This document shows positions 2,185-63,651 of a stretch of DNA of 64,000 bases, piece by piece (position 1 is the first letter of the stretch; the number at the start of each line of letters is the position of its first letter). Source of the stretch: an uncultured Actinomycetota bacterium (lineage in GTDB: Bacteria > Actinomycetota > Actinomycetes > JAHEKZ01); NCBI GenBank assembly GCA_963743915.1, contig CAVURN010000005.1:352001-416000 (forward strand), written 5' to 3'. Both the position numbers and the translations under genes were made by a program. The notes beneath the pieces are model-generated. The model saw nothing but the letters and a program-made list of their open reading frames with translations. It had not been told where the DNA came from and made no database searches.

Positions 2185-3144
2185 CTAGCCCGCTTCGCTC
2201 CCGCCGACGTTCCGCCCCGCGAACACGCGAAGCGCCATCCCTTCCAGCGCGGCTGCTCTTCGCGTCAGACGAGCCCCGGCCGGCTTGGCGAGAACCACCG
2301 TGAGCGCCGGAACAGGATCGGCGAGGTCTCGCGCCACCACTCGACGGCCCTCGACCGACTCGTCGTTGTTCGGCCTCAGGTTGAGCAGGCTCCATCCGAG
2401 CCCACGGCCCACCAGCGCCCGCGCGGTCTCCGCACTGCGGGTGCGGTACCTGACCTGCGGTTCCACGCCCGCGGCGGTGAAGGCAGCCCTGAAGTAGTCA
2501 CGGCTGTGCGGCAGGTCCAGCAGGACGAACGGCTCGTCGGCCAGGTCTGCCAGGCGCACCGACGCGGCGCTGCTCAACGGGTGGTCGGCGGGAAGGAGTG
2601 CGTGGGCCCGTACCTCCAGGAGGGGGCGACGCTCGATCGCTTCGCCGAGTCCCAGGTCGTAGGTCAGCGCCACCTCGAAACGTCCCTCGCGCAGCCCGGT
2701 CTCGATGCCGTCCAGGGGCTCCTCGACAGGGTCCACCTCCAACCCCGGCAGCTCATCGGCCACGGCAGCCACCAACGTCGGCACCAAGTAGGGGGCCAGG
2801 ATCGCGAAGCACCCGAGCCGGATCCGTCCCACCAGGCCTTCACCGAGGGCGTGCGCCGAGGTGTCCAGGTCGTCCGCCTGCCGCAGCAGCTCGCGGGCCG
2901 CCACCAGGAGCTCGTCCCCGGACGGGGTCAGTGTCACACCGCGGGCATGGTGCCTGACCAGCAGCTGCACACCCAGAGCCCGTTCGAGGTCTGCCAGAGC
3001 CGTGGACATGGCCGACTGCGACAGGTGGACCTGCTCGGCCGCAGCGGTCAACGTCCCCGCCTCGGCGACCGCGACGAAGTACTCGAGCTGGCGCAGCGTG
3101 AAGCGAGCCCTGGGGCTCCGCTCGTCGGGGGTGGTCACCCGCAC
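2185..3144 (-). CDS. LysR family transcriptional regulator (HinK-like position)
   Basis: 'FTLRQLEYFVAVAEAGTLTAAAEQVHLSQSAMSTALADLE' LysR HTH; last gene of the 10354->2185 run. Confidence 0.93.
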   Translation of the reverse strand: MRVTTPDERSPRARFTLRQLEYFVAVAEAGTLTAAAEQVHLSQSAMSTALADLERALGVQLLVRHHARGVTLTPSGDELLVAARELLRQADDLDTSAHALGEGLVGRIRLGCFAILAPYLVPTLVAAVADELPGLEVDPVEEPLDGIETGLREGRFEVALTYDLGLGEAIERRPLLEVRAHALLPADHPLSSAASVRLADLADEPFVLLDLPHSRDYFRAAFTAAGVEPQVRYRTRSAETARALVGRGLGWSLLNLRPNNDESVEGRRVVARDLADPVPALTVVLAKPAGARLTRRAAALEGMALRVFAGRNVGGSEAG

Positions 3145-3165
3145 TGCCCGTCGTCAGTCGGCATC

Positions 3166-4655
3166 TCAGTAGCTGATCCAGGTGGTCTTCAAGGCGGTGT
3201 ACTTGTCGAACGAGTGGATCGAGAGGTCACGGCCAACGCCGGACTGCTTGAAGCCTCCGAAGGGCGTCATCGGGCTCAGCGCATCGACGGTGTTGACCGA
3301 GACGGTGCCGACCTTCAGCTGCTCCGAGACCCTCAGCGCCCGTGAGAGGTCGGACGTCCACACCGACGCCGCCAGCCCGAATCGCGTGTCGTTGGCGATG
3401 CTCACCGCCTCCTCCTCGTCATCGAACGGGATCACCGCCAGCACCGGACCGAAGATCTCGTCGCGAGCGATCTCGTGATCGTTGGAGACATCGTCGAAGA
3501 TGGTGGGCGTCACGTAGCAGTCGCTCGACAGGGTGAGTCGATCGCCACCGACCACGAGCCTTGCCGACCTCCGTCCCGACTCCACGAACCTCATGACCCG
3601 GTCGGTGTGCTGGCGACTGACCAGAGCACCCACGGTCGTGCTCGGATCCAGGGGGTGACCCGGTGCCATCGCCTCTGCCTGTTCGACGAGTCGCTCCAGC
3701 AATGCGTCCTTGACCGAACGGTGGACGAGCAGCCGGGAGTTGGCCGAGCACACCTCGCCCTGGTTGTAGAAGATGCCGAACGCCGACTTTGCCGCCACCT
3801 CGTCCAACGAGGTGGCGTCCGCGAAGACCAGGTTGGGGCTCTTGCCGCCGAGCTCCAGCCACACCTGCTTGGCGTTCGACTCCGCCGAGTACGAGAGGAA
3901 GAGCTTGCCGACCTCCGTCGACCCGGTGAATGCGAGGCAGTCGACGTCCGGATGGCGGCCGAGCCCCTGACCGGCGGTCTCGCCGAAACCCGGGAGCACG
4001 TTCAGCACTCCGTCCGGGACTCCAGCCTCGGTCGCGAGCTGAGCGAGCCGCAGAGCCGAGAGGGGGACTGCTCCGCAGGCTTGAGCACCACCGAGTTGCC
4101 GCTGGCCAGAGCCGGTGCGCACTTCCACGCCGCCGTGTCGAGCGGGAAGTTCCACGGGACGACAGCCGCGACGACCCCCAGCGGCTCGCGGCGCACCAGG
4201 GCGAGATCGCCACGACCGGTCGGGGCGATCTCGTCGTACACCTTGTCGATCGCCTCGGCGTGCCACTGCCAGACACCGGCTGCCGCGGGGACGTCCACCG
4301 CCAGCGCGTCGCTGATCGGTTTGCCCATGTCGAGGCACTCGAGCAGGGCCAGCTCCTCGGCGTTCTCGCGAATCAGACCGACCAGGCGAAGAAGCACCTC
4401 CTTGCGGTCCGCGGGGGAGGCGTGGGCCCAGTCGCCCCGGGCGAAGGCCGCACGAGCCGCTGCCACCGCCCGGTCGACGTCGTCGACGTCGGCTGAGGCG
4501 ACATCGCCCAGGACGTCGCCGGTGGTCGGGCTGAAGTTGGCGAACGTCTGCCCCGAGGCGACGTCGACCTGGGCACCGTCGATGTAGGCAGCGCCCGGCA
4601 GCTCGAGCGCTGCGACGCGCTTCTCCCAGTCATCGCGTGTCAGGGCTTGGCTCAT
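3166..4655 (-). CDS. Aldehyde dehydrogenase (PuuC/HinD-like; candidate imidazole-acetaldehyde dehydrogenase), one frameshift near 4060
   Basis: Joined from ORFs 4002..4655 and 3166..4338: 'VPWNFP', 'LKPAEQSP', 'FTGST', 'LELGGKSP', 'NQGEVC', 'EIFGP'. Confidence 0.9.
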
Positions 4656-6740
4656 GCGGATGACTCCTCAGGGGCGAGTCCAGTGACCTCGCGCCGGAAG
4701 GGGACGCTGTCGCCCGTGCGCGGCGGGCCGTCCAGCTCTTCGGCGTACTTGTGTCCTTCATAGACGGCTGCGGCGATCGTGGCGGGGGCGAAGGCGTCGC
4801 CGATCGCACGGACACTCAGCAGCCCGGCGTCCGTCCACTCACCGCTGCGAGCGTTGAGGCCGGTGAACAGCTCGTCGCGCGGCAGGCGAGCCGTCACCAT
4901 CACGACCGCGTCGGCGGGCACCGCCTCCTCGCGTCCGGTGTACGCGCAGGCCAGGGTGACCTCCCCGTCCCCCATTGCGGTCAGCGTTCGCGCCGTTCGC
5001 ACCTGCACGCCGGCGTTCAGCACCCGCTCCTGGATCCGGATGATCTCCAGCGTGTTGTTCGTCCAGCTCGACACCTGTGCCGCCGGCGTCACCAGCTGGA
5101 CGTCGTACCCCTCCGCCGCGAGCAGCTCGGACAGGACACCCCCCATGTAGTAGTGGTCGTCGTCGAAGACCACGACACGTGGGCCGGAAGGACGCTCCCC
5201 CGACATCAGGTCGTCCGGGGTCAGCACCGGCAGTGATCCCGCGGTGGGGACCGGGGTCAGGTGCCAGCGACCGATGCCGTCGGCGCGCCATCTGGCGCCC
5301 GTCGCCACCACCACGTGCTCGAAGCCGCTGCCGATGATGTCGTCGACCTCCATGGGTGACTCCATGGCGACCTCGACGTTCTTCAGGCCACGGATCTGCT
5401 GCTCGCGGTGGTCGAGCACCCGCACCCACGCGGCCAGACCGGGCAGGCGGGACTCGCGCCAGACGCGACCACCGAGCTGGCGCGTCGCCTCGGTCAGGGT
5501 GACGTCGTACCCGCGTTGGCCCAGCGACTTCGCCGCCTCCAGCCCGGAAGGACCGGCTCCGACGACAAGCACCGAGGTCTCCGATCCGCGCACTTTGATC
5601 CGCTCGGGGTGCCACCCGCGCCGCCACTCCTCACCCATCGTCGGGTTCTGCGTGCACCTGATCGGAGACATCGTGAAGTCGCCGGACACACAGATGTTGC
5701 AGCCGATGCACTCGCGGATGTCCTCGAGCCTTCCCTCCTCGATCTTGCGCGGCAGGAAGGGGTCGGCGATCGAGGGTCTGGCAGCGCCGATCAGGTCCAG
5801 GATCCCCTGACGCACCTGGCGCACCATGGTGTCCGGCGAGGTGAAGCGACCGACGCCGACGACGGGCCGGGTGGTCAGCTGCTTCAAGCCCTTGACGTAC
5901 TCCTCCTGCGCGCCCTCGGGCCCGAAGCGCGACGTGACGGAGTCGTCCTCCCAGGACCCGAGCACGAAGTCCCAAAGGTCCGGGTGCTCAGCGAGCTCGG
6001 CGACGACCTCCTCGATCGCCGCGCGGTCGATCCCGCCGTCACCGAGCAGCTCGTCGACGGTGATCCGGCAGGCGACCGCCGCCTTGCCGTCACACGCCTC
6101 CCGGGTGTCCTCGAGGATCTCGCGCAGCAGCCTCATGCGGTTCAGGGTGCTGCCGCCGTACTCGTCGGTCCGCTGGTTGTAGCGCGGACTCAGGAAGTGG
6201 TGGATGCCTCCCAGCGCGTGGCCGGCATACACGTACACGATGTCGTAGCCGGCCTCGATCGCACGCCCGGCCGCCGCCTTGTGCCAGCGGCGCAGGTCGA
6301 CGATGTCCTGCTTGGTCATGGCCCTCGCCTGGACCGGGTCCAACGACCACGTGGCGACCGGCAGGTGTGCCGGACCCATCGGCGCCTCGCGGCTGTAGAG
6401 GTTCGGACCGTTCATGCCGTTGTAGGTCAGCTCGAGGCCGGCCAGAGCCCCGTGCTCGTGCACGCGATCGGCCATCCGGGCCAGGGCCGGGATGTCCTGG
6501 TCGTCCCAGAGCCGCAGCTCGATGAACGGGCGTGATGTCGGACGAGTAGTGGAACTCGACCTGCTCGGTGCACACCACACCCCAGCCGCCCTCGGCCTTG
6601 ACGCCGCGCATGGTCGCGAGCGCCGTCACGTCCCGGTACCCCATGCCGTTGCAGTGCGGAACCTGGAAGAAGCGGTTGGGGGCAGTGACCGGACCGATCG
6701 GGACCGGTTCGAAGAGGACGTCGTAGCGGGGGTCACGCAT
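4652..6740 (-). CDS. Histamine dehydrogenase (TMADH family; 6-S-cysteinyl-FMN, [4Fe-4S]), frameshift near 6535
   Basis: 'YDVLFEPVPIGPVTAPNRFFQVPHCNGMGYRD', 'PFIELRLWDDQD', 'VYVYAGH', 'GSWEDDSVTSRF', 'ECIGCNICVSGDFTMSPIRCTQNP' and C-terminal 'VPFRREVTGLA' closely follow Nocardioides simplex histamine dehydrogenase as I recall it. Confidence 0.85.
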
Positions 6741-7929
6741 CGCTGCTCCTCGGCGGGACGGCCAGCAGTCGAGCCCGCTCGTCTGCATCACTTGCCACGT
6801 CGACGACGGTCAACGCCAACGCGGTCGCCGCATCGAGCACGGCGCGGTCGGCTGCGGGCGTCGCGGCGGCGGCGGCGAACTCCGGTTGGTGGTTCACCGC
6901 AGGAAGGGAGTCGATCCCGATGTACGGGTGGATCGCCGGCACCACCTGGGACACGTTGCCCATGTCGGTGGACGCCCGGTTCATCCGGGTCGCAGGGTCG
7001 TCGGGACTGGCGAACCGGCGTCCGAGGCCCTCGGCGTTGGCGACATACCTGGCCAGCACCGAGGTGTCGTTGCGGAAGTCGGCGTACGGCTGGCCCTCGG
7101 ACGTGATCGTGAGCCGGCAGTCGGTGGCCAATGCCCCGGCCTCGAAGCACTTGGCCGCGCGAGCCTCGACCTCACGCATCTGCGACATCGTGGTGCCTCG
7201 TACGTACCAGTGACCCTGTGTGCGGTCGGGGATCACGTTCGGCGCCTCTCCGCCGTGCGTCACGATGCCGTGCACCCGCGAGTCGGACGGGAGCTGCTGG
7301 CGCAGCAGGGCCAACGCCACCTGCGCGATCGTGAAGGCGTCCGCAGCGTTGACACCGAGGTCGGGGTAGGCAGCCGCATGCGCGGCCTTGCCCTCGTAGG
7401 TGACGCGCGAGGTGCGAGACGGCATACGCCTCTGCGCTGTGCGACGTCGACCGGCCCGGGGTGGGCCATCAGCGCCAGGTGCGCATCGTCGAAGGCGCCG
7501 CGGTCGAGCAGCTCGAGCTTGCCGCCGGCGCCCTCTTCGGCCGGCGTCCCGAGCAGCTTCACGCGGATGCCGAGGTCGTCGGCGACCGCTCCGAGCGCCA
7601 GCGCGGTACCGACCGACGACGCAGCGATCACGTTGTGACCGCAGGCATGACCGAGGCCGGGGAGCGCGTCGTACTCGGCGCAGACGACCACGGTCAGCGG
7701 GTCCGTCTCCGCGCACGGCCTCGACCGCAGTGGCGACCCCGTAGGCCTGCGGCGTCACGTCGAAGCCCGCCGACCGCCATGGCGTCGGCCACCCATGCCG
7801 CTGGCGCGCACCTCTTCCCACGCCACCTCGGGGTGGGCGTGGATCCGGTGGCTGAGGTCGATCAGCGCGTCGGCGTCTCCGCTGCGACGACGCGACGTCG
7901 CCTCGTCGCGCACCTCGGTCAGCCGTCAC
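6733..7929 (-). CDS. M20 family amidohydrolase (HinG-like position), several frameshifts
   Basis: Pieces read 'LIDLSHRIHAHPEVAWEE', 'EYDALPGLGHACGHNVIA', 'GTPAEEG', 'GKAAHAAAYP', 'STDMGNVSQVVPAIHP'; the GTG overlaps the upstream TGA. Confidence 0.8.
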   Translation of the reverse strand: MTADRGARRGDVASSQRRRRRADRPQPPDPRPPRGGVGRGARQRHGWPTPWRSAGFDVTPQAYGVATAVEAVRGDGPADRGRLRRVRRAPRPRSCLRSQRDRCVVGRYRAGARSGRRRPRHPREAARDAGRRGRRRQARAARPRRLRRCAPGADGPPRAGRRRTAQRRMPSRTSRVTYEGKAAHAAAYPDLGVNAADAFTIAQVALALLRQQLPSDSRVHGIVTHGGEAPNVIPDRTQGHWYVRGTTMSQMREVEARAAKCFEAGALATDCRLTITSEGQPYADFRNDTSVLARYVANAEGLGRRFASPDDPATRMNRASTDMGNVSQVVPAIHPYIGIDSLPAVNHQPEFAAAAATPAADRAVLDAATALALTVVDVASDADERARLLAVPPRSSDA

Positions 7930-8624
7930 CGGGCGTCTCCCGGTACGCCGTAGCTCGGCGAGCTCTCGGGGTCGAGCGCCCGCTACCAGGTAGGCCTGCT
8001 CCTGGGGCTGCCAGACGCGCCAGAGCCGCGCGAGCTCGCCACCGGCTCGTCGTGCCAGTCGACCCGGAGATCGGTCACCGGCCAGGTGTAGACCGGGTCC
8101 GGATCGGCGACCAGCAGACCGGCCGAGTGCACGGGGCCGGCTTCGCCCCCGGCGGCGAGGGCGGCGGCGAGCCCCGCGATCAGCCGCTCTCCGAGCGGTG
8201 CCGATGGGTCGAGCCTGCGAAGGCATCGGCCGCGGCGTCCAGCACCGACGGCGACGACAGCAGGTTGCCGGCAACGACGACCCCGGCGCGCGACGACCTG
8301 GCCGTGCACGCCCAGTGCCTGCTCGACCGGTCCAGGCCGCGGTCGTCGCCGTTGCGGTCGACGGCGGTCAGCTGACGCCAGGCGATGACGGCGCGTGCGG
8401 CTGGCGTCCGACGACGTCGGCCACCGCGGCGTCCGGCTCGGCCCCCGCTCGAGGGCGTCCAGCATCGTCGGTCCCAGACGCGGGTCGGTGACGTTCTGCG
8501 TGGTGACGGCGCCGACGCCACCGCGGACCCAGGCACAGCGGGCCGCGACTGCCGGTGACGACGACGTGATCGCCACACCCATGGCGCCGGTCCTGGCGCA
8601 GTGGCCGCCCACGCTGAACGTCAT
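7926..8624 (-). CDS. DUF1028 family (Ntn-hydrolase-like; HinH-like), frameshifted
   Basis: N-terminus 'MTFSV...TGAMGVAITSSSPAVAARC', 'TQNVTDPRLG', 'AGGEAGPVHSAGL', 'DLRVDWHDEP', C-terminus 'ALDPESSPSYGVPGD'. Confidence 0.85.
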
Positions 8625-9044
8625 GACGCCACCCGACTCGGACGAGCACCGCGGTCACGTCGATCTCGACCAGCCACTCCGGCCGGGCAAGCGCGGTGAC
8701 GACCAGACCGGTCGACACCGGGTAGACACCCTTCAGCCATCGGCCCATCACCCGGTAGACCGGCTCGCGGATAGCGGATGTCGGTGAGGTAGACGACGAC
8801 CTTCACGACGTCGTCCAGACTCGAGCCGCACTCGTCGAGCAGCATCGCCATGTTCGCCATGGCCTTCTCGGCCTGCCTCGACGTCACCGATCGCAACCGA
8901 CTCGCGGGTGTCGAGGTCCTGCCGATCTGGCCGCGCAGGTAGACCGTGCCGCCGGCGACCACGGCCTGGCACAGGTCGTTGTCGAGGTTCTGCTCCGGGT
9001 AGGTGTCGCGGGTGTTGAAGGGGCGGATCGCGTCGGTGGCTCAT
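8621..9044 (-). CDS. RidA/YjgF family enamine deaminase (HinL-like), frameshifted
   Basis: 'RPFNTRDTYPEQNLDNDLCQAVVA...VYLRGQIG', 'WLKGVYPVSTGLVVTALARPEWLVEIDVTAV'; ATGA overlaps at both ends. Confidence 0.85.
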
Positions 9045-10354
9045 GCGCGATCCCCCGAGCTGCACCGCCTGGACCCGTCGCCACACTGGTCGCGAGCTCG
9101 CTGCCGCGGTAGGCCAGGTAGCCGCGCTGCGATCGCGATGTGGTCGGCGACGAACCTGGCGTCGTGCCAGACGCCCCAGATGAAGGACGAGCCGCGCCGC
9201 GACAGCCACGGCAGCCCGAGGAAGTAGATCCCGGGCTCGGTCGACACACCGCGCTGGTGCCTCGGCCTGCCGGTCTCGTCGAAGGCGTCGACCTGCAGCC
9301 AGCCGAAGTCGACGGCGAAGCCGGTCGCCCAGACGATCGACGTGACGCCCGGCGCTCGCGAGGTCGAGCTCGAGGATCGGGTCGGTCACGCACGCCGGAG
9401 CCGGGCCCAGGATGCGCGCGCCTCGGCTCCTCGGGCAGGTCGAGCCCGTTGCGCGCGACGTAGGCGTCGGCCTCGTCGAGCACCGAGAGGTAGTTGGCGT
9501 CGCCGTGGGCGATGTTGTCGGCCAGGTCCGGCGCGAAGGTGCATCACACCGTCCTCGAACGAGCTCGTCCGGCCGACGAGCATCATGCCGCGCGCGGCGA
9601 GGTCGCGGAAGTCGACGGTCTGGCCGCCATGGGCGCCGCTGACCGCGATGGTGACGTGCTCCTTGCCCTGCGGCGGGGTCTCCTCGTCCCACTTGCCGAG
9701 CACGCCGAGCCACCAGACGAAGTCGCGCCCGCGATAGCGCCGCGGCGGACGGTCGTGCGGACCGACCGACAGGTAGACGCGCCGCCCGGCGCGCAGCAGC
9801 TCGTCGGCGATCTGCACCCCCGACGATCCGGCCCCGACGACGAGCACCGCGCCCTCGGGCAGCTGGCTCGGGGTTGCGGTAGGCGCTGGAGTGGATCTGC
9901 TGAGGCCCGGCGTCGTCGGGCACGATCGCAGGAATGACCGGGCGCTGGAACGGTCCGGTCGCGGCCACGACGAAGCGCGCGTCGATGGCCCCGTCCGAGG
10001 TCTCGACGCGGAAGCCCGGCCGGCCGGCGTTCCGCTGCGACCGACGTCACCTCGACGCCGCAGCGGATCGGTGCGGCGATCTTCTCCGCGTAGGCGACGA
10101 AGTAGTCGGCGACCTGCTCCTTGGGAGCGAACGCGTCCGGGCTCGACGTCGGGGAACTCCAGGCCGGGGAAACGGTCGTGCCAGGCCGGCCCGTTGGCGA
10201 CCAGCGAGTCCCACCGCCCGGACCGCCAGCGCTCGGCGATGCGGTCCCGCTCGAGGACGAGGTGCGGCACGCCGCACCGGCTCAGGTGCTCGCTCATCGC
10301 CACGCCGGCCTGCCCCGCGCCGACCACCACGGCATCGACCACTTCGTCCGCCAT
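9041..10354 (-). CDS. Flavin-containing monooxygenase family (HinF-like; candidate imidazole-acetate monooxygenase), multiple frameshifts
   Basis: 'VVGAGQAG', 'RWDSLVANGPAWHDRFP', 'QIHSSAYRNP', 'VVGAGSSGVQIADEL', 'WATGF', 'GLPWLSRRGSSFIWGVWHDA'. Confidence 0.85.
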
Positions 10355-10483
10355 CTCGGCACTCCCTGGGTGAGGCTCCGTCGTCCTGGCTGCCTGGCGC
10401 TCTCTGCGCACCTCAGGCCGCTGTCTCCGGCATCCTGGTCGGTCGGATACCCCCTGTCCAACAGATGTTCTCGGGGACTGGCT

Positions 10484-10496: not shown

Positions 10497-10557
10497 TGTA
10501 GAGGCGGAGGCGGACGCAGGGGTGCGGAGATCACGGAGGAAGGATCACGCGGTTGGG

Positions 10558-10631
10558 TGGAGCTGAGGGGATTTGAACCCCTGACCCCCTCGTTGCGAAC
10601 GAGGTGCGCTACCGGACTGCGCCACAGCCCC
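10558..10631 (-). tRNA. tRNA-Ala(CGC), CCA not encoded
   Basis: Reverse complement GGGGCTGTGGCGCAGTCCGGTAGCGCACCTCGTTCGCAACGAGGGGGTCAGGGGTTCAAATCCCCTCAGCTCCA; G3:U70 pair, anticodon CGC, GTTCAA T-loop. Confidence 0.96.
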
Positions 10632-10705: not shown

Positions 10706-11699
10706 TCAGTCGCCGACGGCGCGGCGGCTCGACTCACCGGTCGGCGCGTCCGAGCGTTCGACCGGCGGGGCCGCCTCGTGCTCCAGCAGGGCGTCGAGCT
10801 CGTCGAGCTGCACCTCCGCGGCGAGCAGGTCCTCCTCGCCCAGCCCGTCGTCCAGCAGTCGGCCCGACGTCCAGGCCCCCGGTGTGGTGAGGTCGATGAC
10901 CTTGATCGGTCGAACCGCCTTGGGGGCGGTCACGTAGGTCGGGAGCGGCAGTGGGTTCGGGGCCCACGCCTCGTCACCCTGCTCGACCGCCGCCGAGCCC
11001 GCGGACGCCGCGTGCCGCTTCGTCTCGACCGTGACGGCCCGCGACGGGCCGGACACGAACCCTGACGCGTCGGGGCGGTCCTCAGCCGGTGCCACCTCTC
11101 GGCGATCAGCCGTCGGGTTCCTCCGGTCGGTGCGCGCGTCGTCCCGCCGCGCAGCGTCCTTCGCCCGGAGCCCGCGGAGCCGGCCATCCGACGGCGCTGC
11201 TTCTGCAGAGCCTGGACGCGCAGGTGGACCACGAAGGCGACCAGCAGCACGACCACGACCAGCGGGTGCCCACCAGGGCACGGGGGTCAAGGGCGCTGCG
11301 AGCGCGAGGACCAGTGCGAGGGCCGCCAGCACCCCGAGGGTGCGGGCCCGACGCTGGGCGAGGGAACGGGGTGGGCGAGCCGGACGTTTGCGCGCAGCCG
11401 GACGCGGCTGTCGGCGGGGCGCCGGACCGCACGGGTCGCTCCGACCGCGGCTCGGGTCGAGGGCGCCGGGTCGGCACCGCGTCCTCGTGGCGGGTCGGCA
11501 CGGGCTCCTCCACGAGCTCCTGGCGGCGTCGGGCGTCCTGCGCGGCCTGCTCGCGGCGCGAGAGCACGCGCATCGCCTGCCCGAAGCGCTCGACCGAGCG
11601 GTTCTCGGAGGCGGTGTCGTGGTTGCGGAGCCACATCGGGATGAGGACGGCGGCCCACATCAGGGCGATCGCTGCATAGATCAGACCGCTTGCACTCAC
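10706..11699 (-). CDS. Divisome-associated SepX/GlpR-like membrane protein, frameshifted
   Basis: 'SGLIYAAIALMWAAVLIPMWLR...ERFGQAMRVLSRR', 'WAPNPLPLPTYVTAPKA', terminal 'RRAVGD'; conserved position before tRNA-Ala. Confidence 0.75.
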
Positions 11700-11832
11700 G
11701 GGACATCACGGTACGTGCGGGTCCGTTCACTTCTCGGTAACGCGGCCGGTGTGTCGGACCCTGGGTGTACGACGCAGAAGGTCGGGCGCAACGAGACCTG
11801 CCGGACGCACACTCGGCGCAGGGAGACCGAGG

Positions 11833-12436
11833 TCAGCTGAGTGGGAGGCGGGTGCGTCGCCAGCGCTCGGCCACGCCCTCGGGGATCTCGCCGGCCAGCA
11901 GCACGTAGACCCGGTGGTCGCGCCAGTCGCCGTCGATGTGCAGGTACGCCTCCCGGTCGCCCTCGTACCGGAACCCCAGCTTCTCGGCCACCCGGCGGCT
12001 CGGCATGTTCTCCGGCCGCATCGCGATCTCGATCCGGTGCAGCCGCAACGAGGCGAACGCGTGGTCGGTCGCCAGCGCCACCGCGGTCGGGATGATCCCC
12101 CGACCGGCGTGGTCGGCGCCGATCCAGTACCCGATGTGCGCCGCACGCAACGAGCCGTAGTGGACGCCTCCGACGGTCAGCTGCCCCACCAGCCGGCCGT
12201 GGTAGGTGACGACGAAGGGGAGCATGCGACCGGCACGGGCCTCGCGGCGCAGCCCGGCGACCATGCTGTGGAAGCCGACGGAGGGTTGGCGGGGGTCCGG
12301 GTTGGTCGCCTCCCACGGCCGCAGCCACTCGGCGCTCGCCGCCCTGACGTGGCGCCAGGCTGCCGGCATCCCGGTACCGGATCGGGCGCAGTCCGACCGG
12401 CCCCTCGGAGAGCGTGACCGGCCACCCCGTGGTCAG
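11833..12436 (-). CDS. RimJ/RimL-type GNAT acetyltransferase (start approximate, frameshift near 12365)
   Basis: 'GWPVTL..GPVGLRP', 'WLRPWEAT', 'IGYWI...AGRGI', 'LHRIEIAMRPENMPSRRVAEKLGF', 'HIDGDWRDH'. Confidence 0.85.
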
Positions 12437-12920
12437 TGGTCACCCCCGGCGAGCTGGTCGCGCACGTGGGCGAGCAGCGGCGCCACCACGGCGACGCCGT
12501 CCCGAGCGCCCCCCACCGATCCGGGAAGGTTCACCAGCAGCGTGCGCCCCGCGACCCCCGCGACGCCTCGCGACAGCACCGCCGTCGCGACGCCCGCGGA
12601 CTGTCCGGCGGTGCGGATCGCCTCGGCGATCCCCGGCACCTCACGGTCGAGGACGCGGCGCGTCGCCTCCGGCGTCCGGTCGTCGGGTGCGAGGCCGGTG
12701 CCGCCGGTGGTGAGAACGGCGTCGACGCCCGCGTCCACGGCGGCTCGCAGCACCCGCTCCAGCTCGTCCTCGTCGTCGGCGACCACCGTCGAGCGTCACG
12801 TCGCCGACGCCGAACGCGCGCAGCGCCTCCACGACCGCCGGCCCGCGAGCGGTCCTCGTACTCGTGCGCGGCGGCCCGGGTGGACACCGTCACGACGTGG
12901 ACCCGCAGTGCTCGCGTCAG
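12433..12920 (-). CDS. mogA: MogA/MoaB molybdopterin adenylyltransferase, frameshifted (start approximate)
   Basis: 'VTVSTRAA...YEDRS', '[19 protein letters not shown]', 'LSRGVAG...VNLPGS'. Confidence 0.8.
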
Positions 12921-13388
12921 GCACGGTGCCAGTCCCCGGACGCTCCCCCGGTCTTGGTGTCGACGTGCACCGCGTTCACCTCGGCGGCGGGGTCGACCGC
13001 CTTCACCATGTCGATCAGGGCCAGCGCCGCGACGGTGACGCAGGTGAGCGCCTCCATCTCGACGCCGGTGCGGTCCGCGGTGCGCACCGTCGCGCGCGAT
13101 CGCGACGTGGTCGTCGTGCACCTGCAGGTCGACGGCCACACCGTGGATGGCGATCGGATGGCACAGCGGCACGAGATCGGGCGTGCGCTTGGCTGCCTGG
13201 ATGCCCGCGATGCGCGCGACGGCCAGGGCGTCCCCCTTCGGCACGCCTGGACCGCGCAGCAGCTCGACCACCTCCGACGAGACGTCGACCCGTCCGGACG
13301 CCGTGGCCGTACGCACCGTGACGTCCTTGCCGGAGACGTCGACCATCCGCGCGGCGCCGCGCTCGTCGAGGTGGGTGAACTCGCTCAT
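12917..13388 (-). CDS. moaC: Cyclic pyranopterin monophosphate synthase MoaC, frameshift near 13095
   Basis: '[17 protein letters not shown]', 'PLCHPI', 'TGVEMEALT', 'DMVKAVD', 'KTGG'. Confidence 0.93.
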
Positions 13389-14611
13389 CCGGCGCGCCGC
13401 TCGAGCATGACCACCGTGACGGCGTCACCCGACGCCACGTGGGTGACGTCCTCGGGCACCGCGATCAGACAGTTGGCGCTGGCCAGTCCCGCGAGCAGGT
13501 GCGAACCGGAACCGCCGACAGGACGGACGACGTAGCGACCGTCCTCGACACCGAGGTCGCCCCGCAGGAACTGTCGCTTGCCGGACGGGGACTGCACGTT
13601 CTCCTTCAGCACCGCCCGCACCGTCGGGCGCTCGAGCGGCTCGAGCGCCTGCATCCGGCGGAGCACGGGGCGGACGAACATCTCGAACGAGACGAACGCC
13701 GAGACCGGGTTGCCCGGCAGGGTGAAGATCGGCGTGCTGTCCGGGCCGACGAACCCGAAGCCCTGCGGCATGCCGGGCTGCATGGCCACCTTCTCGAACG
13801 TGACACTCCCCATGCGTCCGAGCGCCTCCTTCACGACGTCGTAGGCGCCGACGCTGACCCCGCCGGTGGTGATCACCAGGTCGGCCCGGATCAGCTGGTC
13901 CTCGATCGTGGTGATCAGGGTCTTCGGGTCGTCCGGCACGAAGCCGACGCGGTAGGCGGTGGCCCCTGCAGCGTTGGCGGCGGCCGCGCAGCATGAAGCT
14001 GTTGGAGTCCGGGATCTTGCCGCCGGCGATCGGGTCGCCCGGCTCGACCAGCTCGCTGCCGGTCGACATCACCACGACGCGCGGACGCGGACGCACCAGC
14101 ACCCGCGCGCGACCGACCGCCGCCAGCAGCGCGAGCTGGGCCGGGCCGAGCCGCGTCCCTGACGGGGACGACGACGTCACCCTGACGCGCGTCCTCGCCC
14201 TGGGAGCGCACGTAGGCGTCCCGCTGCGGAGCCCGTCGGATGGACGACCTCGACGATGTCGCCGTCGGTCCACTCGACCGGGACGACCGCGTCCGCACCC
14301 GAAGGCATCGGTCCCCCCGTCATGATCCGCGCACACTGTCCTGGGGAGACGGCGAGGGCGCCGGAGTACCCGGCAGGGATGTCGCCCACCACCGGCAGCA
14401 TCACCGGCGACGACTCCGAAGCGCCCGCGACGTCGTCGGTGCGGACGGCATAGCCGTCCATGGACGAGTTGGTGAACGGCGGCAGGTCCCACGTGGCCGC
14501 GACGTCCTCGCTGAGCGTGCAGCCGTGGGCGTCGAGCAGGCGGAGCTCGAGCGGGGAGAGCGTGTCGATGTTCGCCAGGCAGTCCGCGAGGTGCTGGTCG
14601 ACGGACTTCAT
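13385..14611 (-). CDS. moeA: Molybdopterin molybdotransferase MoeA (glp), frameshifted
   Basis: '[12 protein letters not shown]', '[20 protein letters not shown]', 'STGSEL', 'TTGGVSVG', 'MQPG', 'LPGNPVS'. Confidence 0.92.
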
Positions 14612-15534
14612 GAGGCCGCCTGATCTCCTGCGCCGCGCTCCTGCTCGCGCACGAACTCCGCGAGCCACGCGCGGAACTCCGGCCCAGGTCCTCCCGCTCG
14701 CTGGCCAGCCGGACGACCGCCTTGAGGTAGTCGGCGCGGTCGCCGGTGTCGTAGCGGCGGCCGCGGAAGACCACGCCGTGCACGACGCCTCCCGCGTCCG
14801 CCGGCATGCCGGCCAGCGTCTCCAGCGCGTCGGTCAGCTGGATCTCGCCCCCGCGTCCGGGAGGCGTGTCGCGCAGCACGTCGAAGACCGCCGGGTGCAG
14901 CACGTAGCGACCGATGACGGCGAGGTTGCTCGGCGCCTCGTCGGCCGGCGGCTTCTCGACCAGACCGGTGACGGCGAACACGTCCTCGTCGTCGGTGGCG
15001 GTGACCGCCGCGCAGCCGTAGAGGTGGATCTGGTGCCGCGGCACCTCCATCAGCGCGACCACCGACCCGCCGCGGGTCGCCTGCACCTCGATCATGCGGG
15101 CGAGCAGCGGGTCGCGCTCGTCGATCAGGTCGTCGCCGAGCAGCACGGCGAACGGCTCGGCCCCGACGTGCTGCGGCAGCGACGAGCACCGCGTGCCCGA
15201 GCCCGCGGGGATCTCCCTGACGGACGTAGTGGATCTGCGCCAGGTTCGTCGACTCCTGCACGCGGGCCAGGCGGTCCGTGTCGCCCTTGGCCTCCAGGGC
15301 GAGCTCGAGCTCGACGTTGCGGTCGAAGTGGTCCTCGATCGCCGTCTTGTTGCGGCCGGTGACCATCAGCACGTCGGACAGGCCGGCCGCGACGGCCTCC
15401 TCGACGACGTACTGGATGGCCGGCTTGTCGACGACCGGCAGCATCTCCTTGGGCACCGACTTCGTCGCCGGAAGGAAGCGTGTGCCCAGCCCGGCAACCG
15501 GGATCACGGCCTTGGTGGGGCGTCCTGTGCTCAT
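14608..15534 (-). CDS. galU: UTP--glucose-1-phosphate uridylyltransferase, frameshifted
   Basis: '[29 protein letters not shown]', 'GLGHAV', 'VEKP', 'GEIQLTDA', 'RYDTGD'. Confidence 0.95.
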
Positions 15535-15543
15535 GCCCCGAAT

Positions 15544-53713: not shown

Positions 53714-54898
53714 TCAGTCCGGCGGGGGCAAGCCGAACCGGAACTCAGCCGCTCCAGGCGGAAAGGGTCCGCCATGCTGCAACACTGCGGCCATGGCGCG
53801 AACCTTTGACAAGTATGCCCGCCCAACAGCGAGGCGTTCAGGCTCCCATGCTCGGAGAGCACCCTGCACATCGCCGGATGTGGCCAAGAGGTGGTCGACC
53901 AAGCGCCAGGCGTCGGCGGCAGCCTTCGCGGCTCCCGCCGCCGCGTGGGGTCTGGGCGTGATCGCTGCGTCACCAATGAGCGCGACCCGGTCGAAGGCCA
54001 CGTTCTGAGGTTCGCAGTCGCTGATCGTGGTGACGAAGGGGTTCGGTGCGGCGCTCAGCAGGTCGCGAAATGGCGAGACCAACTCGTTGAGGGCTCGATT
54101 GCGGAAGGTGTCGAGGCTTGTCGAGCTCAGGTCTTTGAAGTGGACCGTGACGGGGCGGCGCCCACCGTCCTTCGCCGTCATGAGGCCGTCGAGTGCCTCC
54201 CCTTCCTCCACATTCCAGTACCACTGAAAATTGATCCGAGCCCTACCTGTCACTTCCCCGTCGGAGGTGACCTGACAGATGGGGTAAGCGATGATGTGCC
54301 CATCCGGCAGTAGCCCATAGGTGAAGGTGCCTTGAAAGAAGCTCCAAATGTCGTCTGAGACGTCGCTCTCGTCGACCATGCCTCGCCACGTGACATATCC
54401 AGCGTACGTGGGCGACACCCCGAGTAGTTGGGCGCGCGCAACCGAACTCCCCCCGTCAGCGCAGACCAGTAGGTCTGCACTGACCTGGGTGCCGTCGGCG
54501 AACGAGGCTGTCGGCAGTTCTCCATCGAGATCAATACCCACGAGTTCCTTGCCAAGGTGGTAGTCCTCGGTTCCGAACACATCCAGGAGTCTCCGGTAGA
54601 TGGCGTTGTATGCGGTGAAGCGCCAGTCAGAGGCCACTTCGCCTTTCTTGAGCCCGGTCGCGGCATCGTAGTAGCACATGGCGGAACTGGCGACGCTGAT
54701 TTCTTCCAAGGTCGTGGACGTGCGCTCAAGAAGGTAGCGGACAAGTTCAGGCTGCACGACGATGCCCGTTCCAAATCCCGACAGCAGTGTTGAGCAACGC
54801 TCGTAAACCGCCACATCGCATTTAGCGTCACGCAGCAGATTGGCAGCCGTTAACCCTGCAATCGACCCACCGATCACGGCGACCTTCGGCATGCCCAT
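53714..54898 (-). CDS. dhpH: 2,6-dihydroxypyridine 3-monooxygenase
   Basis: 'GGSIAGLTAA', 'LSGFGTGIVVQPELV', 'DWRFT', 'YAGYVTWRG', 'NFQWYWNV', 'GDAAITPRPHAAAG', 'LQHGG.F.PG..F.FGLP' follow DHPH as recalled. Confidence 0.9.
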   Translation of the reverse strand: MGMPKVAVIGGSIAGLTAANLLRDAKCDVAVYERCSTLLSGFGTGIVVQPELVRYLLERTSTTLEEISVASSAMCYYDAATGLKKGEVASDWRFTAYNAIYRRLLDVFGTEDYHLGKELVGIDLDGELPTASFADGTQVSADLLVCADGGSSVARAQLLGVSPTYAGYVTWRGMVDESDVSDDIWSFFQGTFTYGLLPDGHIIAYPICQVTSDGEVTGRARINFQWYWNVEEGEALDGLMTAKDGGRRPVTVHFKDLSSTSLDTFRNRALNELVSPFRDLLSAAPNPFVTTISDCEPQNVAFDRVALIGDAAITPRPHAAAGAAKAAADAWRLVDHLLATSGDVQGALRAWEPERLAVGRAYLSKVRAMAAVLQHGGPFPPGAAEFRFGLPPPD

Positions 54899-54923
54899 GG
54901 TTGTCTCCAGTCCTGGTCAGAAG

Positions 54924-55850
54924 TCAGCCGGCGTTCAGGGCCAAGGCAATGGGTCGAAGGGGTGCGCCGCTGGCGCCGCGGAGTCGAATCGGCGCCGCGA
55001 TGAGACAGAACTCATCCACACCGTCACGCGACAGTTCCTCAAGGTTGACCAGCTCGATCATGGGGACTCCGGCCTCGGCAAGGAAGTGGCAGTGGCCCGG
55101 TAGCCAATTGTCCCCATGCTGAGACGGAGCGACTTCGACACACTCCTGGTCCGCGCCGATGGCGGAAATCCCCTGGCCGGTCAGCCACTTCGCCGCCTCA
55201 AGGCCAAGCCCGGGTGGGTTCCCGAGAACCTTCGAACCATCCGGCCAGAAGCCCATCCGTCCGGTTCTGACCATGACCACGTCACCGGGCTCCAGGGCGA
55301 GGCCTGCCTTCACCAACGCATTCCTGCAGTCGTCGATCGTGATGGCGTAGGAGTCTGGTAGGCACTCCACGCCAAGGCCCTTGGCAACGTCGAGAAGCAC
55401 GCCTCTGGTGATGATGGGCGGGATGACCTCTGCACCACCCTTCGTCCAACCGCGGCTGCCGAGAGAGTCCTCCGCCGAAAATCCGTTGTAGATGTGTCCG
55501 TCCACACCAAAGTGGTTCAAGGAGTCGATGTGGGTCCCGGTATGGGTGTACATGAACACGACGTCGCCGGAGTAACAGACATGCCGATTAACCTCGCTCC
55601 CCGCACCGTTCAAGTTGTCCACGACGGTGCCGGAGGGGGTGTGGCTCATGAACAACTGGTAGCTCGGATCGCCAGCAGCCTGGAAACTGGGCATGCCGAC
55701 GAAGTAGTCGATGCTCAGGTCGTAGCTGCGCGTCCCGTCTACTCGAGCCAAGATGGCTGCCGACTTCTCGGGAGACAGATGATTGAGCGCTCCCAACTGG
55801 TCGTCAGGGCCCCAAGGGCTAGCGGCTACCTTGATGCCCGCCTTCGCCAT
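54924..55850 (-). CDS. Cyclase / kynurenine-formamidase-like metal-dependent hydrolase (pkc-like)
   Basis: 'PWGPDDQLGALN', metal motif 'HTGTHIDSLNH', 'RGVLLD', 'RTG', 'GAPLRPIA'. Confidence 0.85.
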   Translation of the reverse strand: MAKAGIKVAASPWGPDDQLGALNHLSPEKSAAILARVDGTRSYDLSIDYFVGMPSFQAAGDPSYQLFMSHTPSGTVVDNLNGAGSEVNRHVCYSGDVVFMYTHTGTHIDSLNHFGVDGHIYNGFSAEDSLGSRGWTKGGAEVIPPIITRGVLLDVAKGLGVECLPDSYAITIDDCRNALVKAGLALEPGDVVMVRTGRMGFWPDGSKVLGNPPGLGLEAAKWLTGQGISAIGADQECVEVAPSQHGDNWLPGHCHFLAEAGVPMIELVNLEELSRDGVDEFCLIAAPIRLRGASGAPLRPIALALNAG

Positions 55851-56149
55851 CAGACGTCCGTGCGCTGGAAGTCGACCACCGCGCGTGCCGAAAAGCGCGG
55901 CAGGAGCCGCTCGACGACATCGAGGTGGAAGGGGTCGTTCGAGTAGGCGTCCAGGTCCTCCCACGAGTCGAAATCCGTGATCAGGACGCCGTCGAACGGT
56001 TCGCCGTTCTCTCCTGGATCGCCCTGGTGGCTCCCCAGCTCCCAATGCTTGATCACCGGCATGGCTGTCGGCAGTGTGTTGAGAATCTCGATGATCTCCT
56101 CGTTGCTGTGCCCCTCGGCGACTTTCCATGAGAAGACATGCCGAATCAT
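55850..56149 (-). CDS. Dabb (stress-responsive A/B barrel) protein
   Basis: 'MIRHVFSWK', 'DFDSWEDLDAYSNDPFH', 'VVDF'; AGGAGAG RBS. Confidence 0.85.
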   Translation of the reverse strand: MIRHVFSWKVAEGHSNEEIIEILNTLPTAMPVIKHWELGSHQGDPGENGEPFDGVLITDFDSWEDLDAYSNDPFHLDVVERLLPRFSARAVVDFQRTDV

Positions 56150-56242
56150 GCTGCTCTCCTAACGCTCGGTGTCGTGCGACTGCACTGCGTCAGTCTCGGA
56201 GAGAGCGCCCAGGAGCGGCTCTGCATACTCCGATAAGAACGG

Positions 56243-56258
56243 TCTGACACTTGTCAGA
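56243..56258. promoter_or_regulatory. Palindrome TCTGACA-CT-TGTCAGA upstream of the Dabb-cyclase-dhpH-coxG-ndh run
   Basis: Perfect 7-bp arms about 95 nt upstream of the Dabb start. Confidence 0.55.
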
Positions 56259-56294
56259 TGGCGGAACGATCACCACGCGTCCGAGGTGTCGGAG

Positions 56295-57515
56295 CTAACG
56301 CCCGTCCTCGCCGGAGTCTGTCCCTTCGTCTGCCGCAGGTTCAGTCCCGTCATCCAGAATTTCGGCAAGCCGAAGAGCCACCGCGAGCTCGTCTCGGCGG
56401 CTGGCGATGGGGAAGCCCAACCGCTGCTCGATAGACCTCAGTCGGTAGGCAACGGTTCTCTCATGGATCTGAATACGGGCGGCGGTGGCTGCGGCGTTCT
56501 GCCCTGTGTCAAAGTATGCCCGCAACGTCTCGCGGAGAAGCTTCGTGCGAGCGTCGTTGACGCCGACGGCACCCAACTCGCCGATCATGAAATCACGTGC
56601 GGCTGGCACGTCCTGCAAGATGAGGCTCTCGAGGGCGACATCACGATAGGTGGTCACTGGCCGGCGACAGAGTTTCCCGACCCGGAAGGCCTGCCAGGCC
56701 TGCCGATGTCCGAGGCGAAAACCCTCCAACCCAAGGGCCGGGCCACCGAGTGCGAGATACGTGCCCGGAGGCGCCTGAATGGATGACCGATGATTCTCGA
56801 AGCTGGCCTCCAGGCGACTGCTGCCCAGCCATGCCAGCGAAGTACCACCAGGACCTTCTACAACGAGCAGCGAAGCATCGAGGAGCTTCGCCATTGCTTG
56901 TAGCGCCGTGCGGGCACTGGCACCCCATGCGACCACAGCAAGGTGCTGGAGTCGAAGGTTGTACCCCAACTGCTCGGTGTCCGTTGGCACACCGCTGAGC
57001 AGGTCTGTGACGATGGCTCGACGCTGGCGGTCACGACTGTGGAAGAAGTATTCCGACTTCTCTCGTTCGTAGGTCACCACGACGTCGTGCGTGATCCGGT
57101 CGTTCCATGCGAAGTGGTACCCCGCCGCCTGCTTGAGAACGGCGATCTGACGTGGGCCGTCAGGTACCACACGCACCGTTGTCTCGAGAATCCAGTTCCA
57201 CAGAACGACCTGACCGATTCGCCGCGTCAACAGCAAGTCGGTGAGTTCGACCCCCGCCTGAGCAGCAACCCTCGCCTCTTCAAGTGCCCCTTCGGGTGCG
57301 CCTTCGGGCAGGTGACGGGCGTGGCGGAGGCCGTGGATGATGCTGGTCAGTGCCCCAGTGATGCTGGGTAGCTCTGCCTCTAACAGCATCGGGTCGTTCC
57401 GACGATAGTAGTTGGGAGCTCCTGCGCGACTGCGTTCTTGAATTTCCACGCTGATGACCGACACATCGCCTGCAAGCGCGTCAGCCACCGCCCGTAGGTC
57501 TTGCTCGATCGACAT
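56295..57515 (-). CDS. PucR/CdaR family transcriptional regulator
   Basis: C-terminal HTH 'LRETLRAYF...AAATAARIQIHERTVAYRLRSIE'; 'GLEGFRLGHRQA'. Confidence 0.9.
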   Translation of the reverse strand: MSIEQDLRAVADALAGDVSVISVEIQERSRAGAPNYYRRNDPMLLEAELPSITGALTSIIHGLRHARHLPEGAPEGALEEARVAAQAGVELTDLLLTRRIGQVVLWNWILETTVRVVPDGPRQIAVLKQAAGYHFAWNDRITHDVVVTYEREKSEYFFHSRDRQRRAIVTDLLSGVPTDTEQLGYNLRLQHLAVVAWGASARTALQAMAKLLDASLLVVEGPGGTSLAWLGSSRLEASFENHRSSIQAPPGTYLALGGPALGLEGFRLGHRQAWQAFRVGKLCRRPVTTYRDVALESLILQDVPAARDFMIGELGAVGVNDARTKLLRETLRAYFDTGQNAAATAARIQIHERTVAYRLRSIEQRLGFPIASRRDELAVALRLAEILDDGTEPAADEGTDSGEDGR

Positions 57516-57607
57516 CACGGCAGTGTAGTCCCCGATAGAGGCCGCCAGCAGCGCAACAGGGAAGGACGTAGCCCTCGTCCGGGCTACGTCCTTCCCACAA
57601 GCGGGGG

Positions 57608-58774
57608 TCAGGAGACGCCCCAAACCTCCTTGTAGATGGACTGGTAGTCAAGGCTGGTTTCCCACTGTGTGCCCTCGGGAGGCAGGCCATTCTCGCCATC
57701 GAAGACGGCCACCCCCACACCCGAGGGCACTGTCTCCTCACCCGCAAGGAGACGGTTGACCATGTCGGCAGCAGCCCAGGTTTCGATGCCGGCGTCGTAG
57801 CCGAACCCGGCATCCTGGCCCTCGTTCTTGTGGATCAGGTCGACGTTAGCCGGGAACCCGCTGCCAGCGACCACCTCAAGTGAGTCATTGCGGCCAGATG
57901 ACATCACCGCGGCTGCTCCACCTGTCGTCATCAGGTCGTCGTAGGAGACCGAAATCCCATTGGCATCTGGGTTGCGCAGGAGTGCAGTCTCGAACTTCTG
58001 CTGCAGTGGAGGACCGAACTCCGCGGTCTTGACCTCAACGGTCTCCACCGGGCACGTCGGACACATCTCCTCCATCTTCGCCTGGAAACCGTCGCTGATG
58101 GCCTTCGTGATGATCAGTTCAGGAACGCTGAACTCGATGATATTGGCCTCCTCGCCGAGCCGTGAGAGAAGCCATACTGCTTGGGACGCGCCCAGGGCCT
58201 CCGCCCACTCCACGAAGTTGCCTTCCTGAAACTCCAGCGTACGCGCGAAGTACGACTCGGAGTTCGGATCCACGTCGCTGCAGTCGGCAGCCTCCTGAGA
58301 GACCACGGGGATCCCAGCCTGCTTGGCCTCCTCCAACGCGTTCTTCACCAGCGGGCAGTCGATCGAGAAGAGCCAGATGACATCGGCGTTGCTGGCGATA
58401 GCCCGCCGGATGCCCTCCTGGTACGCCGCTGGCTCGTACTTGCCGTCGTAGATGGACAGGTCCCAACCAAGCAGCTCAGCAACCTCCGTGGCCGCCTCGG
58501 CCTGCTTGGTGCCGGTTGGCGATTGCACTCCTGAGTTCACGATGGCCACACGCGCATCGGGTTGAGCGGCAGGCCCGCTGTCCGGGGGCAAGGCAAACGT
58601 CCCATCGCCAAACAACGCTTCGAGCTCCGTTGTCGCCTGCTCGGAGACCGCGTCGTCCGAGCCGGTCTGGGTGCCTTCGCCAGACTCGGTGCTGCACGCG
58701 GCAGCGGTGAGCACCGCGGCAAGCACCGCAGCGACGCCAAGCAGGCGTCTAGGACTTCTCATGAAGGGATGCAT
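57608..58774 (-). CDS. Periplasmic-binding-protein type I (RbsB-like) ABC lipoprotein
   Basis: Signal peptide with lipobox 'TAAAC'; 'LGWDLSIYDGK', 'AGIPVV', 'LLRNPDAN'. Confidence 0.85.
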   Translation of the reverse strand: MHPFMRSPRRLLGVAAVLAAVLTAAACSTESGEGTQTGSDDAVSEQATTELEALFGDGTFALPPDSGPAAQPDARVAIVNSGVQSPTGTKQAEAATEVAELLGWDLSIYDGKYEPAAYQEGIRRAIASNADVIWLFSIDCPLVKNALEEAKQAGIPVVSQEAADCSDVDPNSESYFARTLEFQEGNFVEWAEALGASQAVWLLSRLGEEANIIEFSVPELIITKAISDGFQAKMEEMCPTCPVETVEVKTAEFGPPLQQKFETALLRNPDANGISVSYDDLMTTGGAAAVMSSGRNDSLEVVAGSGFPANVDLIHKNEGQDAGFGYDAGIETWAAADMVNRLLAGEETVPSGVGVAVFDGENGLPPEGTQWETSLDYQSIYKEVWGVS

Positions 58775-61246: not shown

Positions 61247-61334
61247 GAAGGGACCATCCTTGGTCAGGTCGGTTTGGCGGCCAGCGCGTGGCAGTCGTGG
61301 AACTCGGCCCTGGGCGTCGGCGCAGGTTCGGCGA

Positions 61335-63509: not shown

Positions 63510-63651
63510 GGCCCTCAACCTAGCCATGCCCATCAGGTGCTTCCTTTCATGAGGTGCCGAATCTGACCCTGACAATTTGCGGATCTGCACTAGCAAGAAA
63601 TCGTCCGCGGTGATCCCACCTCAGGTGAGCGGGCTCAGGGATCAGCGAGGG

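Follow-up and report, generated by a model that had tools for sequence, protein, structure and literature searches.

A predicted operon for histamine catabolism

We analyzed a window of 64,000 nucleotides (positions 352,001 to 416,000 of contig CAVURN010000005.1, assembly GCA_963743915.1) from an uncultured Actinomycetota bacterium of the GTDB lineage JAHEKZ01. The block at 2185-10473 on its minus strand is best read as an 8.3-kb catabolic operon predicted to degrade histamine down to aspartate, with genes that are probably intact and frameshifts that are most likely errors of the assembly. We give this reading a probability of about 0.65. It is based on family membership, similarity to characterized dehydrogenases, gene order, and genomic linkage, and the chemistry assigned to each step follows the Pseudomonas pathway as presented in PMC8231116.

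In the proposed route, histamine dehydrogenase would convert histamine to imidazole acetaldehyde, and an aldehyde dehydrogenase (ALDH) would convert this to imidazole-4-acetate. A HinF-like flavin monooxygenase would hydroxylate the imidazole ring, and RidA and DUF1028 proteins would take the hydroxylated product through formiminoaspartate to N-formylaspartate, from which an HmrA-type M20 amidohydrolase would release aspartate and formate. The LysR-type regulator encoded last in the unit probably activates the operon upon a pathway intermediate. An original prediction, made from the sequence alone, had proposed these conversions as far as ring opening within a single unit. This is the best reading, because a histamine-type dehydrogenase, an aldehyde dehydrogenase, and close counterparts of HinF, HinL, and HinH are joined here.

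With 70% G+C, the window contains many long spurious open reading frames (ORFs), from which genuine genes were told apart by their families and by comparison with relatives. A Pfam scan and the same comparison placed seven co-oriented, closely packed genes at 2185-10354 (Table 1). The monooxygenase gene starts with ATG at 10354-10352, behind a ribosome site (GGGAG) at 10366-10362. ATGA overlaps occur at the RidA/DUF1028 and dehydrogenase/ALDH junctions, the M20 and dehydrogenase genes overlap by 8 nt, and a gap of ~21 nt separates the ALDH gene from the LysR start. The seven tightly packed genes of the originally predicted families are thus borne out by Pfam and by their junctions. Gene order was kept for all seven genes, at ~80% DNA identity, in three genomes of the same genus (G002, G005, and G007), and the arrangement is therefore not a matter of chance. 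NCBIfam offered a specific model for none of the seven proteins. The one model whose cut-off was passed was TIGR01891, for amidohydrolases in general (M20 protein, 180 bits against 153.75); the top model for the ALDH, PuuC, reached 623 bits, under its cut-off of 850.

Table 1. Features of the predicted histamine operon, with frameshifts and corrected identity relative to the orthologues of G002
Feature	Coordinates	Strand	Basis	Frameshifts	Corrected identity (%)
HinF-like FAD monooxygenase, predicted imidazole-acetate monooxygenase	9046..10354	-	Pfam FAD/NAD(P) monooxygenase 9389-10354	7	80
HinL-like protein of the RidA family, predicted for the enamine/imine deaminase step	8621..9044	-	Pfam Ribonuc_L-PSP 8624-9040	4	91
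HinH-like DUF1028 protein, predicted formiminoaspartate deiminase	7929..8624	-	Pfam DUF1028 7986-8624; N-terminus MTFS	8	82
HmrA/AmhX-type M20 amidohydrolase, predicted N-formyl-L-aspartate deformylase	6733..7886	-	Pfam Peptidase_M20 7263-7754; start codon uncertain	5	79
Predicted histamine dehydrogenase, 6-S-cysteinyl-FMN/4Fe-4S/ADP type	4652..6740	-	Pfam Oxidored_FMN + Pyr_redox_2 4655-6499; N-terminal piece 6450-6740	1	93
HinD-like NAD aldehyde dehydrogenase, predicted to turn imidazole acetaldehyde into imidazole-4-acetate	3166..4655	-	Pfam Aldedh, two pieces 3169-4101 and 4005-4655	1	87
LysR-type regulator, final gene of the unit, intact	2185..3144	-	Pfam HTH_1 + LysR_substrate 2188-3153	0	80.5
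Upstream control region	10355..10473	-	Alignment of six upstream regions		

The dehydrogenase and its substrate

The TMADH-family gene of the cluster encodes a predicted histamine dehydrogenase. In a PDB search, the 615-amino-acid piece encoded by the window itself scored 886 bits against the Nocardioides simplex enzyme (3K30), 775 against the Rhizobium enzyme (6DE6), and 443 against TMADH, and the full-length G002 orthologue, which is 93% identical to the window gene, scored 1029, 906, and 524 bits, respectively. Cys35 of 3K30, the site of 6-S-cysteinyl-FMN, is kept within VPHCNGMGY in both the G002 alignment and the window translation (frame 6090-6809). The window ORF at 4652-6625, aligned to 3K30, contains the 4Fe-4S motif (CxxCxxC...C) CIGCNICVSGDFTMSPIRC and an ADP-binding GxGxxG motif, VVGAGPSG. 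Eight histamine-binding residues have been proposed (Gln65, Ile74, Phe77, Glu79, Asn115, Tyr181, Trp267, and Asp358; PMC10180351). Seven of them, all except Tyr181, are identical in the G002 alignment, and the window translation has the same kept residues. The scores and the cofactor cysteines agree with the earlier proposal of an actinobacterial histamine dehydrogenase.

The operon might instead degrade another amine or imidazole, such as agmatine, putrescine, or methylated histamine, with histamine as a mere side substrate. According to PMC10180351, known histamine dehydrogenases also accept agmatine, putrescine, and 1,3-diaminopropane, which they oxidize at rates 10-30% of that for histamine. 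The replacement of Tyr181 by Leu points the same way, as does the pairing of the RidA-DUF1028 core with very different upper enzymes in other Actinomycetota. These are a class-III aminotransferase, a GMC oxidoreductase, or an HpaB-type monooxygenase, and an NCS1 permease or aspartase-like lyase is often present as well. However, the sequence retains seven of the eight proposed binding residues and is about twice as similar to the two characterized histamine enzymes as to TMADH. Linkage to DUF1028 is moreover limited to dehydrogenases that are at least 66% identical (see below), and in Pseudomonas experiments have connected the F-L-H genes with imidazole-4-acetate, the expected product of histamine (PMC8231116). 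A main substrate other than histamine is thus unlikely, and we retain histamine as the predicted substrate.

Further TMADH-family genes were observed in this genome and its relatives. Tandem paralogues at 59129-61240 and 61338-63440, ~42% identical to the histamine dehydrogenase, adjoin genes for a periplasmic binding protein, a PucR-type regulator, a cyclase-family protein, and an FAD monooxygenase; the minus-strand region of the window that holds them (53714-63596) probably represents a further cluster for amine catabolism. Another paralogue of this genome (G000), the third, lies at C1:291400-293202. In G002, a second TMADH-family gene (L014:1569-3572), 57-59% identical to the histamine dehydrogenase, lies directly upstream of the monooxygenase gene. 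The same paralogue group was found in G003, G009, G010, G019, and G027, in genomes or places without DUF1028, and it probably has another substrate.

Counterparts of the lower hin pathway

A plasmid of Burkholderia pyrrocinia carries an oxidoreductase-RidA-DUF1028-argE operon with a divergent LysR gene and a cytosine-type permease, and its gene order matches the published hinFLHG order of Pseudomonas aeruginosa PAO1 (PA5393-PA5390; PMC8231116). The G002 monooxygenase was 72% identical to the Burkholderia oxidoreductase over 408 amino acids, and the G002 RidA and DUF1028 proteins were 61% and ~52% identical to their Burkholderia counterparts. The G002 LysR protein was 37% identical over 297 amino acids to the LysR protein encoded beside the Burkholderia operon; in PMC6467879, Brevibacterium homologues are reported to be only 32-36% identical to HinK. 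The sole solved relative of the DUF1028 protein is 2IMH, a hypothetical protein, and among 14 control genomes PF06267 matched only in Thermus, Deinococcus, Haloferax, and Sulfolobus.

The M20 protein presented a different picture. In a pairwise comparison it did not match the Burkholderia M20 protein of the ArgE type significantly (E value of 0.37), and its nearest solved structures were HmrA (3RAM, 232 bits) and Xaa-Arg dipeptidase. The closest matches of the ArgE type within this genome showed 25-29% identity and lay outside the cluster. From the Burkholderia operon and Tables 3 and S6 of PMC6467879, we infer that Pseudomonas HinG is of the ArgE type. By sequence, the M20 protein of the cluster is an HmrA-type stand-in from another subfamily and not a HinG orthologue, and it offers a candidate for the last, non-orthologous step. 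In agreement with a non-HinG enzyme at this position, Brevibacterium has its best HinG homologues outside the cluster, and they are also present in strains without HinF and HinH (PMC6467879, Tables 3 and S6). The lower pathway had been predicted to be of the Pseudomonas hinFLHG type: counterparts of HinF, HinL, and HinH do stand in that order, but the fourth gene is of another kind.

DUF1028 homologues ~50% identical were also seen on 242 plasmid records, 105 of them from Klebsiella. Those on Burkholderia and Caballeronia plasmids adjoin RidA and an argE-type gene, and for this reason the imidazole-acetate module is regarded as often plasmid-borne.

Origin of the frameshifts

As the original prediction had anticipated, the cluster needs frameshift repair. 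Alignment to the G002 orthologues revealed 26 frameshifts (20 of +1, two of +2, and four of -1), so that 22 of the 26 were insertions, and the corrected frames contained no in-frame stop. tblastn ran through such shifts at 57% identity and hid them; a frameshift-aware aligner was used instead. In its alignment the monooxygenase had seven single-base insertions and zero in-frame stops across 431 codons. One extra base near 6530 splits the dehydrogenase frame, and one base is missing near 4065 in the ALDH gene. When the DNA from the monooxygenase to the dehydrogenase gene was aligned with three orthologues, 32 insertions or deletions (indels) were specific to G000, 30 of them non-triplet and 23 single-base insertions, and the ALDH alignment gave a single G000-specific deletion of 1 nt. 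The corrected identities of G000 to G002 resembled those of G005 and G007 to G002, with no surplus amino-acid divergence. In G002 and G005 the cluster genes have open frames; in G007 the ALDH gene is split over two frames.

The rate of frameshifts in the genome at large was estimated with 213 ORFs taken from 400 kb of G010, a high-quality relative; of these ORFs, 159 aligned at ≥65% identity. Over the 184.7 kb that they cover, 63 shifts were counted (46 of them +1), a rate of 0.34 per kb, and 32 of the 159 conserved genes were broken, including some 90-96% identical to G010; a further sample was alike. Next to the cluster, conserved and housekeeping genes at 11122-15543 carried seven +1 shifts (11257, 11522, 13094, 13988, 14166, 14245, and 15174), and almost none, at most two doubtful ones, occurred from 15.5 to 31 kb. 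Query ORFs for these neighboring genes were picked with a loosened GC3 filter; the strict filter left too few. A local stretch of poor consensus spans the upstream half of the cluster and the neighboring genes. Other local bursts comprised six shifts in 0.72 kb (C3:257 kb), four in 0.94 kb (C1:726.7 kb), and six in 1.8 kb (C1:158.5 kb).

Since shifts of the same kind break conserved genes across the genome, including the housekeeping neighbors, those in the cluster are most probably uncorrected indel errors of the assembly, and its genes are probably intact in the organism. The single split of the dehydrogenase gene was judged an assembly error on the same ground, the occurrence of such shifts genome-wide. 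Dense frameshifts of this assembly should therefore not be taken as pseudogenes when genomes are scanned.

An improbable alternative is that the monooxygenase, RidA, DUF1028, and M20 genes are true pseudogenes, and that the strain, having lost its branch for imidazole-acetate, retains no more than the two dehydrogenases. The distribution of the shifts would fit such a loss, with 24 of the 26 in the first four genes (6.7 per kb, compared with 0.34 genome-wide) and two in the 4.5 kb of the last three, and the cluster is accessory and missing from several sister species. Natural decay is expected to favor deletions, and so many indels would also bring many extra substitutions. The shifts are instead single-base insertions like those in conserved genes broken across the assembly; they extend into the adjoining housekeeping genes, and the three bursts listed above have comparable local densities. 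The corrected first four genes contain zero stops in 1173 codons, and their identity to G002 (79-91%) is like that of the intact G005 and G007 genes (78-96%). Assembly error thus remains our preferred explanation of the broken frames.

Some points weigh against an intact histamine operon. The 24 shifts fall within 3.6 kb, about 20 times the genome mean, a density that needs a local cause. The frameshift calls depend on orthologue alignments at 65-96% identity, and some paired calls may be artefacts; the verdict on them comes from the assembly and the orthologue comparison, and no indexed sequencing run matched more than 0.15 of the sampled words of the stretch. Tyr181 of the N. simplex enzyme is replaced by Leu (AGHALGG), and neither a transporter nor an electron acceptor for the dehydrogenase was found within the cluster. 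The comparison with the Hin proteins of Pseudomonas putida U and PAO1 was an indirect one, through the B. pyrrocinia plasmid operon. The last step is a guess from the position of the M20 gene alone, because the enzyme is unrelated in sequence to that encoded at this position in Burkholderia.

Distribution of the cluster and its linkage groups

The cluster was present in seven relatives. Its architecture varies at the family level: the monooxygenase gene is divergent in G008 (L016) and G018 (L017) and non-adjacent in G016 (L012) and G019 (L011), and the LysR gene of G016 is divergent and upstream. Between the dehydrogenase and ALDH genes, ~400 extra bases are present in G005 (L013:10684-11090) and G007 (L015:8470-8897) and absent in the window and G002. 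The ALDH gene is split over two frames in G019 (L011:10922-12410), and that of G007 (L015:7097-8469) is likewise split and ~30 residues short; these splits may be errors or real damage.

Linkage was surveyed at 80 DUF1028 loci from named species, several of which end at contig ends, so that the counts are lower bounds. A RidA match was found in the flanks of at least 74 loci, mostly directly upstream of DUF1028, and a HinF-type monooxygenase gene lay within 10 kb in at least 30. HmrA-type M20 genes followed DUF1028 in at least 19 loci, all from Actinomycetota; ArgE-type genes (≥41% identity) were near DUF1028 in at least 26, mostly from Proteobacteria. A histamine-dehydrogenase-like gene (56-75% identity) was located within 10 kb of DUF1028 in at least 11 loci, namely those of Gordonia (two), Rhodococcus, a Nocardioides metagenome-assembled genome (MAG), an Actinomycetota MAG, and six proteobacterial records. 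Linkage of dehydrogenase, RidA, and DUF1028 was thereby found in both Actinomycetota and Alphaproteobacteria.

A second survey covered 301 genomes of the class, including the unpublished G025 and G033, both non-matching. The dehydrogenase was detected in 17 genomes (E ≤ 1e-180) and DUF1028 in 20 (E ≤ 1e-40). Ten genomes had both, always within 4 kb of each other, and these were exactly the genomes whose dehydrogenase was at least 66% identical. Seven genomes with a dehydrogenase of the 55-62% group were without a DUF1028 match, and 10 had DUF1028 without the dehydrogenase. Gene context may thus separate true histamine enzymes from paralogues: if our reading is correct, dehydrogenases that are at least ~66% identical and linked to DUF1028 would be true histamine enzymes, and the 55-62% group would act on another substrate.

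The RidA-DUF1028-M20 core is common in Actinomycetota, and the upper enzymes vary. The pathway is modular, and its dehydrogenase version is one recurring combination rather than a one-off hybrid. The original prediction had described a hybrid operon of this genome; the search for the same synteny that it proposed found the cluster in the seven relatives and the dehydrogenase-DUF1028 pair in 10 of 10 class-sample genomes with both genes, and with the 11 of 80 survey loci this contradicts an arrangement particular to the genome.

Chromosomal location and a candidate operator

The cluster lies between a MarR gene and a tRNA-Ala gene. The tRNA-Ala(CGC) gene (10556-10631) is just upstream, and the MarR gene and a CopD/CtaG gene are downstream. 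In G010, 660 bp separate the MarR gene from the next conserved stretch, compared with 9 kb in this genome. In G005 and G007, the cluster is located between genes that are ~270 bp apart here (C2:756184-756450). DNA similarity to relatives extends from ~10473 to ~2219, and against G002 and G005 it starts at 10472-10473. The operon is an accessory, movable cassette found at different chromosomal sites in sister species. No integrase, transposase, or att-like or flanking direct repeat was found around it.

A 20-nt element, GAGAACATCTGTTGGACAGG, with the dyad CTGT-N3-ACAG, is located at 10472-10453. In the six aligned upstream regions it was kept with at most 1-2 mismatches in G000, G002, G005, G007, and G008 and was not found in G018, and we regard it as a candidate operator.

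A very improbable alternative is that the cluster arose recently as a chimera, when an actinobacterium acquired a hinFLHG operon of the Pseudomonas type and this was fused to its own dehydrogenase gene. In favor of such an origin, the monooxygenase is unusually conserved between phyla (72%, G002 against Burkholderia) and the cassette site differs between sister species. Against it, HmrA-type M20 genes follow DUF1028 in at least 19 of the 80 loci, all from Actinomycetota, and ArgE-type genes occur in at least 26, mostly from Proteobacteria; the dehydrogenase-RidA-DUF1028 linkage also occurs in Alphaproteobacteria, the G+C content of the block (0.66-0.75) is like that of its surroundings, and the search for mobility genes and flanking repeats was negative. 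The core is widespread in Actinomycetota, and there is no sign of the Pseudomonas origin that the term hybrid, taken literally, would imply.

Comparison with known systems

Overall, the cluster is a real variant of a known pathway. The histamine-to-aspartate chemistry (PMC8231116), two histamine dehydrogenases, and a Hin-like cluster and lower pathway of Brevibacterium (PMC6467879) are already known. In the literature searched, outside which many subscription papers lie, we found neither a linkage of the dehydrogenase to the imidazole-acetate pathway nor the replacement of the last enzyme, and no paper that combines the term histamine dehydrogenase with hin genes or a cluster context. We consider the chances evenly balanced that Actinomycetota and some Alphaproteobacteria own a complete histamine-to-aspartate route in which the dehydrogenase replaces HinC and, in Actinomycetota, an HmrA-type M20 enzyme replaces HinG, carried on an 8-kb cassette without mobility genes.

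Histamine dehydrogenase serves in food-safety assays, and no description of its cellular pathway was found in the literature searched. The enzyme predicted here is like those of N. simplex (3K30) and Rhizobium sp. 4-9 (6DE6) in its FMN-binding cysteine, 4Fe-4S cysteines, GxGxxG ADP site, and seven of the eight proposed binding residues, and it differs from them in Leu at position 181 and, in this assembly, in the extra base near 6530. For neither of the two enzymes was a genomic context found described in the literature searched, whereas the dehydrogenase here lies within a complete predicted pathway. Linking it to imidazole-acetate genes gives a testable full route and, if true, supplies the missing downstream pathway for the N. 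simplex enzyme.

The hinFLHG genes with hinD and hinK of P. putida U and PAO1 (PA5393-PA5390, PA0219, and PA0218) belong to the same families and have the same F-L-H-M20 order (PMC8231116). The first step is predicted to be carried out here by the dehydrogenase and is carried out there by the aminotransferase HinC, and the genes form one unit here and four regions there. The unit has neither the HinA transporter nor HinI, and its M20 enzyme is of the HmrA type, which lacks significant similarity to the ArgE type of Burkholderia.

The cheese isolates Brevibacterium L261, S111, and S22 (Anast et al. 2019) grow on histamine and have homologues of HinD, HinH, HinL, HinF, and HinI at the consecutive locus tags EB834_10860-10895 (PMC6467879). 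That paper proposes that the first step is catalyzed by a copper histamine oxidase or else by a HinC homologue of weak similarity, and the last by a HinG homologue outside the cluster. Its text contains no instance of the term histamine dehydrogenase, and two unassigned genes of the cluster are unnamed in the supplement examined. By analogy with the operon described here, we infer that these two would encode the dehydrogenase and the M20 enzyme. If so, our reading identifies both genes and suggests that cheese Brevibacterium strains that degrade histamine may use a dehydrogenase rather than an oxidase. The published Brevibacterium order, HinD-x-x-HinH-HinL-x-HinF, mirrors the order ALDH-dehydrogenase-M20-DUF1028-RidA-monooxygenase of the cluster.

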